DNA of 64,000 bases from Rhizodiscina lignyota (Eukaryota), in the NCBI GenBank assembly GCA_010015805.1, contig ML978124.1, positions 1,364,001 through 1,428,000 of the forward strand, in the 5' to 3' direction. This document shows, piece by piece, positions 4,880 to 8,273 of this stretch (its first letter is position 1; each line of letters begins with the position of its first letter). Made by a program: the position numbers and the translations under genes. The notes beneath the pieces were generated by a model. The model was not told the origin of the DNA and searched no databases. It saw only the letters and a program-made list of their open reading frames with translations.

Positions 4880-5984
4880 TCAACCTGGCGGAAGGTGACT
4901 TTGGTCCACAACGTCTTGTGCATCCTTCTCCTCAACCTCATTTGGTCCATGCAGTGGTGAACGTGGCAACGCCATGAGACCTGTAATCCATTAATTGAAA
5001 TCCTATCAACAGTAGCAATTGGCTGTAAAGAGCGTGGAGATTAGACTTACCAGTCCTAGCACTCTCCAATATCCCAAACGGCGAGAGCAGCTTCATAAAG
5101 CTGTCAATCCTCACGCTCTTCGCTGACAACTCCACAATGCAGTTATTTGTGCTAATGTCCAGCACTTTCCCACCGAATTGATGTGTCAGATGTGTGATGG
5201 CCTCTAAATGTTCATGCTTGTGTCGCAATGCCTGACTTGCTGCCAATCTGCTTGGGTGGTAGTCTCTCCGCAAGGACTCCAACGCCTTTATTGCCGCCTC
5301 TTCCTCAATTTGCTGAATGGTCAGTTGCCCTGCTGATGCATCTGCTGACTCGTCCAATGATTCTGCATTTGGCAGTGAACCTGGAGTAGATGCTCCAACC
5401 GTCATCTCGCGGTGATGCGCCAGAAGCTCCTCGAAGTATTCAGGACCCAGGATGGACACCTTCGCTAGCAATAGCTCTCTCTGTACGAGCGGCGCACCAG
5501 TATAGTCCAACACGGCCCAGACGGGTACGAGATCCTCCAGCTGCCGTCTCGCCTGCTCGACCACGCCATCTTGTCCTTGAAGCACGATGGTCATGCGGGA
5601 GAGGTCCTCTACCTCTGTATTGCATACAACGAGTGAGTCGATATTGAATCCTCTCGCCGCAAGAATGCCAGACACGCGGGAAAGCACACCAGGCTCATTT
5701 TGTACGAGACAGTTGAGAATATGTCTCTTCGGAGGAGCTTGCGAAGGTAAGGGAGTCTCGTAAAGAATAGAGGACACAGCAGCAGGAGCAGACCATGAAG
5801 GAGCAGAGTCGTCGTTTGTAGGCAGAGCACCGATACGGCGATGCAGTGCCTTGTAGGCGAGTGCGGAGGTGGAGGAGTTGCTGGAGAGGCGGGTCTGGTG
5901 GAGGAGCGGTATGGAGCGCTGAAGCTTAGTTGGAGAGAAGGAGGAGCGGATTGGCAGAGCGGAGAGCGCTCGCCGGGCCGCCAT
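4880..5984 (-). CDS. ILV6: Acetolactate synthase small (regulatory) subunit
   Basis: ACT domain HILNCLVQNEPGVLSRVSGILAARGFNIDSLVV. Intron 4981-5050; last exon LMALPRSPL...HLPPG*. Confidence 0.96.
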
Positions 5985-6332
5985 AGCTTGATAGGGCCTT
6001 TGGTTAGCTCAATTGATAGATATAAAAGCTATAAAGAAGCCGTTTGAAGACAGAGAGCTGGACGAGCTGATGACTCCGCAATAATTTTGAGCACATGGGG
6101 GAGACGTGCACGGACGGATCCTTGCAGGGATTCTCAAGCTCGGCCGTCGGGGACCCGGATGATCTTCGGCCCGCTGGCACTAACTGGATTGGTTTTTGAA
6201 TCAACTGCCAGCAGCTTCTTCTTCAATCAACAAACACGCCGCCAGGAGCCGCGGCGCCCGACAAGCATCGAGGCTTCGATCATCACCTTTCTGGCTCCTC
6301 TACTTACTTTCAGATCTTGACAAGACTTCAAC

Positions 6333-8273
6333 ATGTCCGAGGAACCGCGCCGCAAGTCGCGCTTCGACCAGCGCGCGCCGCCCGAGCCCGTGCCGCGAGG
6401 AGCTCGATTCGACCGCCGCTCTCGATCTCCTTCCTCTCGACAGAACGAGTCTCGTCGTAGCCGAAGCCCGTGGCCTCGCGATTCCTCAAGCCCTGCGAAC
6501 CCAGATCCGACGGTAGCAGCCGCCGCAGCAGCGGCCAAGATTAACGCGGAACTGCAAAAGAAGAGGGGCATTCAGCATGTAGACGTGCCTCCCATTCGCT
6601 CTGTTAGAAATACCTCACGCACAACAGGAAGTTGAAGTCGCTAACGAGAACGAGAGTGCTACTCCCGGTGCGTCCAAATCCCCGTCTGAGGACCCCGGTA
6701 AGGGCGAGGTTTACACTCAAGACGGCGATTACATGAAGGACATTGAGATCAACGATCTCCGCAACCGCTACATGCTGACCAAAGGCGCAACGCAAAAAAT
6801 GGTAAATACATCTGTCATAGCCCACTGATACTCTCAGGACAAAGCCGCGCGTTTTCAAAGGCTTGACGCCGCTACCTTTTCCTTACCTGTCTCTGTAGTG
6901 TGTGGAGAGTTGAAGCTTACACATAGTGTTTCAGCCGTTCACGGTACACCATTTGCATCAGCTGACCTTACTTGTGTGACATCTAGATCAAAGAACAAAC
7001 TGGCGCCGGTACGCTACTATCCTAACGCAATATACAACGTTTCATAGGGAATATGACCCGCTGATCGCTTGTCAAAGATGTCACTACTCGAGGCTCGTAC
7101 TGGCCGGATAAGTCGATGGCTAATTCAGCTGTACGTGAAGATTTGGATTCACTCTTTGTTATGTTACTAATTCTGGATTAGAATCCCCCGCTCTACCTTC
7201 ACGTCACCAGCACGACCAAGGAAGGTCTCGACAAGGCCATTGCTCAGATCGAGGAGCTCAAGAACCAAGAGCTCCCAAACCTTGTGGATGAACGTCGCTT
7301 CCGCCGTCGTGAGCCGGAACCATTTGAGCGAGACGAGCTTGGCCGAGTAAATTGGTAAAGCCCTGGTGTCATATAAGTTGCTGACCCCTCTATAGCGCAA
7401 GTGGCCGGAGGAGCGTATTCCGATCGACCTTGAGCCAATCCCTGGCTTCAATCTGCGTGCCCAAGTTGTCGGCCATCAGGGAACATACGTCAAGCATATT
7501 CAGCAGGAGACGAAGTGCCGAGTTCAGATCAAGGGACGAGGCTCTGGCTTCATCGAGAACAGCACTCAACGTGAATCTGATGAGCCGATGTACTTGCATG
7601 TTGCGTAGGTTATCCTCCATCCTTTCTACTGCATCATACGTGCAGCACCTGCTTACATTATCACAGTGGACCTGATCCAGACATGGTGGCGGAAGCTAAG
7701 CAGCTGTGCGAGAGCCTTCTCGAATCCGTTCGCGGTCGCTACGAGGAGTTCAAGGAGCGTGGCCCTCAGGAGCGCTACGGCGGTGGAGGCAACCACTACG
7801 GCAACGGCAATCGCGGAGATCGTCAAAGCTATCGTGGCGATCGTGGAGGCTATGGAGGAGACCGTGGAAGTTACAGTGCTGGCGGATATGGAGGTCAAGG
7901 AAGTCCCGACGGCTACGGTACTCAGGGTGATTACGCTCAAGTAAGTCCAACTGGCGCCGTCCATCCCGGACCAGATCCCAGCCAAGGTCAAGCACAAGGA
8001 CAAGAAGATTACGGAGCACAGTGGGCCGCGTACTACGCAGCGAATCCCGGAAGTGACCCGTATGCAATGTACGGCGGCTATCAGAACTACGTGGCGTGGT
8101 ACCAGCAGCAGTACTACCAGCAAGGAGTGCAGGGCGGACAGCAGAGCCCTCCTGCTGCAGGTGGTGTCCCGCCACCACCGCCGAGCGAGGCTCCTCCACC
8201 GCCTCCGCCTCCGCCACCGCCTGGATCTGCGTCTGGCTCATACAACGCTGTGCCGCCGCCACCGGGCATGTAA
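6333..8273 (+). CDS. KH-domain RNA-binding protein, KHDC4/BLOM7-like (splicing-associated); about 7 exons
   Basis: RS-rich N-terminus, DIEINDLRNRYMLTKGATQKM, IKEQTGA-DVTTRGSYWPDKS, NPPLYLHV, FNLRAQVVGHQG...IKGRGSGF...EPMYLHV, Gly/Tyr/Pro-rich tail. Introns include 6603-6654, 6802-6986, 7009-7077, 7131-7181. Confidence 0.85.

Follow-up and report, generated by a model that had tools for sequence, protein, structure and literature searches.

The window analysed here is a stretch of 64,000 nucleotides (nt) of Rhizodiscina lignyota DNA (GenBank assembly GCA_010015805.1, contig ML978124.1, positions 1,364,001 to 1,428,000), and our subject is a long intron, called intron 1, that separates exon 2 from a 22-nt microexon in a gene for a KH-domain protein. 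The gene is encoded on the plus strand from position 6333, and its exon 7396–7605 is 100% identical to P0004, a protein of 491 amino acids (aa) named as a hypothetical protein of the Dothideomycete Rhizodiscina lignyota. The product carries the Pfam domains PF22675 (KHDC4/BBP-like KH), PF00013 and PF23469, and by its sequence the gene is that of a KHDC4/BLOM7-like KH protein in a Rhizodiscina lignyota-like Dothideomycete. By homology (PF22675, PF23469 and the literature on Blom7alpha), the host gene is predicted to be a splicing regulator.

A long intron and a microexon in a KH-protein gene

The gene model, which draws on the window sequence, P0004 and 27 aligned orthologues, places intron 1 and its neighbours as listed in Table 1. 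A preliminary description of this DNA had reported an oversized intron in a KH splicing-factor gene; its gene model is correct, as P0004 and the orthologues agree with it, and the size difference is real, with 185 nt for intron 1 against 49–69 nt for the others (49 or 52, 69, 51, 49 and 62 nt). The exon junction ..TQKM/IKEQTGA is likewise backed by the deposited P0004 and the 27 aligned orthologues.

Table 1. Features of the intron 1 region (window coordinates; identities are mean pairwise values over 22 diverse loci)
Feature	Position	Strand	Description	Basis
Exon 2	6655-6801	+	ends ..NDLRNRYMLTKGATQKM; start of first KH-like domain	translation, PF23469, P0004 and orthologues
Intron 1, long	6802-6986	+	185 nt, phase 0, between ..TQKM and IKEQTGA	
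Weak donor	6802-6809	+	GTAAATAC; A, not G, at +5; identity 0.85	
Block a, donor-proximal branch-point/acceptor-like unit	6821-6838	+	CCCACTGAT; branch A 6828, then CAG/G 6835-6837; identity 0.77	
U1-like string of the preliminary description	6882-6889	+	CTTACCTG; chance match within the variable middle part	
Block b, branch-point-like	6911-6920	+	TGAAGCTTAC; CTTAC 6916-6920, A 6919; identity 0.76	
Predicted alternative (internal) 3' splice site	6932-6934	+	CAG	alignment and contigs L005, L006, L018
Retained extension of alternative isoform	6935-6986	+	52 nt; in-frame TGA 6977-6979	
Block c, true branch point	6952-6967	+	TTTGCATCAGCTGACC; CTGAC 6962-6966, A 6965, with conserved 5' extension	
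Conserved 3' end, productive acceptor	6976-6986	+	GTGACATCTAG; TAG 6984-6986; identity 0.78	
Microexon	6987-7008	+	22 nt; codes IKEQTGA and first base of following codon	present in nearly all loci
Intron 2	7009-7077	+	69 nt; donor GTACGC, acceptor AAG 7075-7077	
Intron 2 internal acceptor-like site	7045-7047	+	TAG/G	window
Intron 2 second branch-point-like motif	7061-7065	+	CTGAT	window

The length of intron 1 is a property of the gene across relatives. Scanning metagenome contigs with protein alignment gave 80 orthologous loci and, with the window's own, 37 distinct genomic intron sequences; at the same codon boundary these measure 102–294 nt, with a median of 187 nt. Over 22 diverse loci, the medians are 184.5 nt for intron 1 and 60 nt for intron 2, and ten more loci, in which the microexon residues differ slightly, have an identical layout. 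A profile hidden Markov model trained on the other 36 sequences matches the full length of the window's intron (E = 6.7e-23), its sole match in the window. As controls, the gene's introns 4 and 5 from the same loci measure 45–72 nt and have freely varying donors; intron 4 is missing from 3 of 19 loci and intron 5 from 10 of 19. Judged from these comparisons, the excess length of intron 1 is beyond chance and kept in orthologues.

The nearest named relatives of the loci belong to the Dothideomycetes, Lecanoromycetes, Eurotiomycetes, Sordariomycetes and Leotiomycetes, a placement that rests on 55–85% protein identity to named proteins and in which two fused gene models inflate some scores; one Eurotiomycetes-like locus shares 85% identity with a Penicillium protein. 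At locus L070 the 3' part of intron 1 and the microexon occur twice, in inverted orientation, which is probably an assembly chimera.

The conservation of intron 1 is concentrated in a few blocks. A MAFFT alignment resolves five conserved parts (the donor, blocks a, b and c, and the 3' end) and a variable middle, and identity in the conserved parts is 0.76–0.87, compared with 0.49 for third positions of codons in the adjacent exon and 0.25 in the middle of the intron. The donor GTAAAT(A) is weak, and GTAAAT occurs in 29 of the 37 introns. Its +5 position differs among near-identical loci, with GTAAGT at L038 and GTAAAT at L035 and L037, a natural strengthening of the weak donor.

Within block a, a CTGAT or CTGAC starts at +22 to +33 in 35 of the 37 introns and is followed by a YAG within about 10 nt; the first AG after it ends at +29 to +49 in most introns. 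In the window, block a and the donor would form a 36-nt intron if used. Splicing to this acceptor was seen neither in the transcript-like contigs described below nor in the listed truncated open reading frames (ORFs). A decoy or protein-binding role for block a is speculation. That its in-frame TGA is its purpose was rejected, as the tails of read-through ORFs carry the block in varying frames.

Block b resembles a branch point. In its variants, CTCAC and CTAAT, the CTNAY pattern is retained and the likeness to U1 is lost, and a YAG/C follows 11–26 nt downstream. Block b is the only conserved CTTAC in the intron; the idea that it masks the real donor in a U1-like manner was discarded, since the CTCAC and CTAAT variants and the free sixth position fit a branch point. 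Directly upstream, at 6893–6909 in the window, lies a semi-conserved stretch (identity about 0.6) that is U/G-rich and then purine-rich (TTGTGTGG..GGAGAG-like) and might enhance use of the internal acceptor.

Block c, which surrounds the true branch point and has the aligned form TTTGCATCTGCTGACC, is the best-conserved piece of the intron, its 16 nt having an identity of 0.87 where third codon positions reach 0.49. Elsewhere in the window there is one more match, which contains a single mismatch; at least two matches are found in 41 of 100 shuffles, so that this second copy is a chance occurrence.

The splice signals of intron 2 are conserved as well. Its donor GTACGC and AAG acceptor are present at 22 of 22 aligned loci, and most of these loci have an internal YAGG with its own upstream branch-point-like motif. 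Use of the internal TAG of the window's intron 2 would add 30 nt and a stop.

The internal acceptor in relatives

Downstream of block b, a YAG stands at the aligned internal-acceptor column in 32 of the 37 introns, and transcript-like contigs point to its use. Eleven contigs that are intron-less elsewhere cover the junction: seven have the canonical junction, three use an alternative acceptor and one (L080) retains intron 1. In the three alternative contigs, exon 2 is joined exactly to the aligned internal YAG and the adjacent intron is removed, which inserts 51 nt in L005, 53 nt in L006 and 55 nt in L018. Their nearest relatives lie in Dothideomycetes, Sordariomycetes and Leotiomycetes, and the insertions match, in length and sequence, the extensions predicted at genomic loci of similar affinity. 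The internal acceptor thus appears to be in use in relatives of the window's species.

The same isoform recurs among predicted proteins. With the truncated 172-aa ORF of L018 as query, an ORF search returned 862 matches, of which 120 were listed. Among the matches listed, 15 of 120, L018's own ORF included, end in KM followed by the translated tail of block c (for example ..HLLTSAA), 86 read straight through the donor (unspliced or genomic) and 10 carry the canonical junction. P0155, a deposited model under the name Thermothelomyces fergusii, belongs to the 15, and its tail is identical to the extension predicted at locus L061. This repeated assembly suggests that the isoform is not rare.

Every predicted alternative isoform is truncated. 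The predicted extensions (45–56 nt) hold an in-frame stop at 37 of 37 loci, although their lengths fall into all three classes modulo 3 (11, 21 and 5 loci). Since the reading frame of the blocks differs from locus to locus and covers all three possibilities, it is the nucleic acid that is constrained here, not a peptide. Comparison of the sequences thus shows a conserved length, conserved blocks and a stop in each predicted alternative isoform.

Two further observations concern individual contigs. At about 120–130 of L006, a TGA stands in place of the glycine codon of ..TKG.TQKM in orthologues, which may be a sequencing error or a variant. L033 has intron 1 removed and intron 2 kept, and L080 shows the opposite; the two contigs are near-identical and apparently come from one organism. 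Since they are complementary, either of the introns that flank the microexon can be removed first.

Explanations of the conserved intron

The preliminary description attributed the intron to a structured U1 mimic: CUUACCUG, presented in a hairpin or pseudoknot, would serve as a cis-acting U1 decoy or would mask a cryptic exonic donor at 6698. The parts of this proposal are all present. The U1-like octamer is in place (Table 1), CGCTAC (6870–6875) is able to pair with GTAGTG (6895–6900), and ACCTTTTCCTTACC (6874–6887) can pair with the exonic GGTAAGGGCGAGGT (6697–6710) at 13 of 14 positions (11 Watson-Crick, 2 GU), the duplex of the two 14-mers having an energy of −17.0 kcal/mol. However, motif frequency, pairing and hairpin stability are all at chance level. 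The octamer has one match on both strands of the window, where dinucleotide shuffles give an expectation of 1.28, and at least one copy occurs in 74 of 100 such shuffles. When 14-nt registers between the upstream pre-mRNA and the intron are counted, 84 of 200 dinucleotide-shuffled introns reach at least one register of 13 of 14 or better. The hairpin region (6859–6918) has a minimum free energy of −14.2 kcal/mol against −12.6 ± 2.4 kcal/mol after shuffling, with 122 of 500 shuffles as stable, and the folding of the whole intron likewise shows no stability above shuffles (z = +0.72).

The orthologous introns point the same way. Columns under the octamer have a mean pairwise identity of 0.24 in the 22 diverse introns, compared with 0.25 in the variable middle, and pieces of the U1-like string 7 or 8 nt long turn up in 6 of the 37 introns, at non-homologous places. 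RNAalifold predicted no structure common to 23 introns (−0.12 kcal/mol, 2 pairs, 0 compensatory changes), and exon 2 offers a candidate cryptic donor (GTAAG or GTGAG within its final 120 nt) at only 2 of the 37 loci. An Rfam scan of 6200–7700 (E ≤ 10) gave no match within the intron and two weak, unrelated matches outside it. Thus, conservation, covariation and the Rfam search, which the preliminary description had itself named as checks, all fail to bear out a structured mimic or a mask. The U1-like motif is a chance match, and a U1 decoy or mask is extremely unlikely. What survives of the earlier proposal is that the intron is a splicing control point, for which conservation and the transcript-derived contigs speak; its mechanism does not. 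As the blocks are kept while the 23 introns share no structure, the constraint lies on primary sequence. Two other structural candidates were set aside: an end-to-end stem (TGTCATA/TGTGACA) that appears in the single-sequence fold is gone from the consensus fold of the 23 introns, and for a fungal thiamine pyrophosphate (TPP) riboswitch the same Rfam scan gave no TPP aptamer match.

The remaining explanations differ in what they make of the blocks. They may serve constitutive splicing only, as redundant branch points or enhancers for a long intron and a 22-nt microexon under intron definition, with the internal acceptor as tolerated noise. Every block does resemble an ordinary splice signal, the microexon and the two introns beside it are invariant, and L033 and L080 show that either intron can be removed first. 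But noise leaves unexplained why 32 of 37 introns from five classes keep an internal YAG with its own branch point in one position, and why the weak donor and the weak AAG acceptor are invariant while the other introns of the gene drift or vanish; the recurrence of the isoform in 15 of the 120 ORFs among the matches listed also speaks against it. We consider a purely constitutive function unlikely. Blocks acting at the DNA level, such as an intronic enhancer or transcription-factor sites, would suit short conserved elements about 500 bp downstream of the start codon, but the grammar of the blocks is strand-specific and that of splicing (CTNAY, then YAG 11–26 nt on), and one block is demonstrably used as an acceptor, which makes this explanation very improbable. 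Fungal small nucleolar RNAs (snoRNAs) are often intronic, and a small noncoding RNA such as a box C/D snoRNA (CUGAU...CUGA with a TGTCAT/GTGACA terminal stem) could be hosted here: CUGA-containing blocks lie near both intron ends, and the single-sequence fold has a 7-bp end-to-end stem. However, the Rfam scan at E ≤ 10 is empty within the intron, no C box is conserved because the bases that follow UGAU vary, the middle that would contain the guide region has an identity of 0.25, a consensus structure or stem is absent, and the transcripts show the blocks working as splice signals. We give the snoRNA almost no credence.

We think it probable that intron 1 is a regulatory intron of a splicing-factor gene, and not a U1 mimic, and that it has a conserved, unproductive alternative 3' splice site next to the 22-nt microexon. 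Under this model, intron 1 would combine a weak GTAAAT donor with two competing units of branch point and acceptor, each branch point leading to the first usable AG downstream. Branching at the strong distal CTGAC of block c would lead to the terminal TAG and to productive mRNA, whereas branching at the weak upstream CTTAC of block b would lead to the internal CAG and leave 52 nt with a TGA in the message, so that the protein would be cut before most of its KH domains. The choice of acceptor would then probably set the amount of functional protein, in a setting formed by the microexon and by intron 2 with its invariant odd donor GTACGC and weak AAG acceptor. The role of such an arrangement is probably homeostatic.

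Several points weigh against this interpretation. Five of the 37 introns have no YAG at the aligned column (CCG in L010, L026, L028 and L049; the 102-nt intron of L067 is without block b), L076 is without block a, and the role of block a is unexplained. The 11 contigs at the junction were taken as transcript-derived on the strength of their lack of introns elsewhere, and the breadth of taxa depends on class placement at the protein identities stated above. In the window's species, use of the isoform is expected by homology with the relatives, and so is the acceptor ending at 6934. We infer nonsense-mediated decay (NMD) of the isoform and also regulation of the balance, possibly by the gene's own BBP-like KH protein acting on the branch-point-like blocks; the repeated assembly of the isoform fits efficient NMD poorly, or indicates a stable product.

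A more specific mechanism can be formulated, which we regard as tentative and rather doubtful: intron 1 might be a branch-point-decoy sensor, in which the gene's own BBP-like KH protein, or BBP/SF1, binds the three blocks and steers splicing between the productive and the poison acceptor. The bound blocks would include the donor-proximal unit, which is too near the donor for splicing, and the 16-nt block c. If true, the intron would be a conserved feedback gauge of spliceosome activity in Pezizomycotina that works through branch-site competition and not through exon inclusion.

Likeness to known systems and implications for fungal splicing

Splicing decoys, or pseudo splice sites, hold introns in unproductive complexes. 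Block a is similarly a lookalike of a branch point and acceptor, in a unit of 29–49 nt that is probably unspliceable; this is a resemblance only. Closer to the conserved unproductive acceptor proposed here are the poison exons of SR and hnRNP genes and the retained intron of srp2, the fungal orthologue of SRSF5. In Lareau & Brenner (2015, PMC4379411), the srp2 intron is described as an unusually long retained intron and NMD target that is among the longest in Aspergillus and Neurospora, and as not notably conserved among Aspergillus species. These systems share with intron 1 a location in a splicing-regulator gene, a premature stop and conservation over large evolutionary distances, and srp2 shares an intron that is exceptionally long for a fungus. 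They differ in that a cassette exon or plain retention takes the place of the alternative 3' splice site found here, and srp2 differs further in that its intron is without notable conservation, whereas intron 1 has strongly conserved blocks. In those systems alternative splicing is coupled to NMD, and for intron 1 both NMD and feedback would be expected only by extension from them.

The human counterpart of the gene also acts in splicing. Blom7alpha is spliceosome-associated, shifts the choice of both 5' and 3' splice sites and has several splice variants, according to Grillari et al. (2009, PMC2781463). Human KHDC4/Blom7alpha and the window gene have Pfam families in common (KHDC4/BBP-like KH). 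In the literature examined on the gene, to the extent of the text available, neither autoregulation nor a conserved intron of KHDC4/Blom7alpha was found. Given the likeness to unproductive splicing in SR, hnRNP and srp2 genes, and given that Blom7alpha alters splice-site choice, feedback of the KH protein on its own branch-point-like blocks is plausible, by reasoning from these parallels.

Stwintrons, the nested spliceosomal introns of Pezizomycotina, offer another comparison. They too are complex introns with several internal elements that resemble splice signals. In contrast to them, the window's intron is without a conserved internal donor, and removal of its 5' part creates no donor (ATG/C..). 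A stwintron was rejected on these grounds, as the alignment has no conserved internal GT donor and the ATG/C junction of L005, L006 and L018 is not a donor. Because no new donor arises at the ATG/C.. junction, the RNA with the additional 52 nt would be an end product and not an intermediate.

The deposited P0004 reads ..GIQH/EVEVANENESATPG, which implies an intron at 6579–6627; orthologues read GIQHVDVPPIRS.. in this region, and the window codes VDVPPIRS in frame there. An alternative intron at 6603–6654 (branch point GCTAAC, 6640–6645) would give ..VDVPPIRS/SATPGASKSPS, a far better match to the orthologues. In 6579–6654 of the window, either the first intron is mis-annotated or there is a second alternative event. 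Upstream, a divergent neighbour is represented by a 356-codon ORF on the minus strand (4938–6008). In two deposited gene models, ACT-domain families (PF01842, PF10369) are fused to the KH protein, and these models have the top scores at many loci, which suggests that the neighbour and the KH gene form a pair that is syntenic across taxa. Deposited models of 147–155 aa (P0185, P0186, P0190, P0206 and others) stop at or just within intron 1; the source names of the models cut there are Aspergillus niger, A. brasiliensis, Neurospora crassa and A. fumigatus. The intron 1 region evidently misleads annotation pipelines.

Our literature searches on KHDC4/BLOM7/KIAA0907, stwintrons and alternative splicing, with subscription journals outside their scope, gave no account of fungal orthologues of the gene or of the intron among the papers listed, and none of the papers listed on unproductive splicing named Pezizomycotina. 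Few cases of conserved, sequence-constrained alternative splicing are documented for filamentous fungi, in which most variant splicing is regarded as noise. Intron 1 has retained its length, weak signals and alternative acceptor in five or more classes of Pezizomycotina, in the gene of a spliceosome-associated KH protein. With two introns and a microexon in about 280 nt, it is a compact and testable model that bears on branch-point choice and on the control of microexon splicing under intron definition. It also bears on gene modelling, since several deposited models truncate or mis-splice the gene at the intron 1 region, and on whether homeostatic unproductive splicing of splicing factors reaches the KHDC4/BLOM7-like family.

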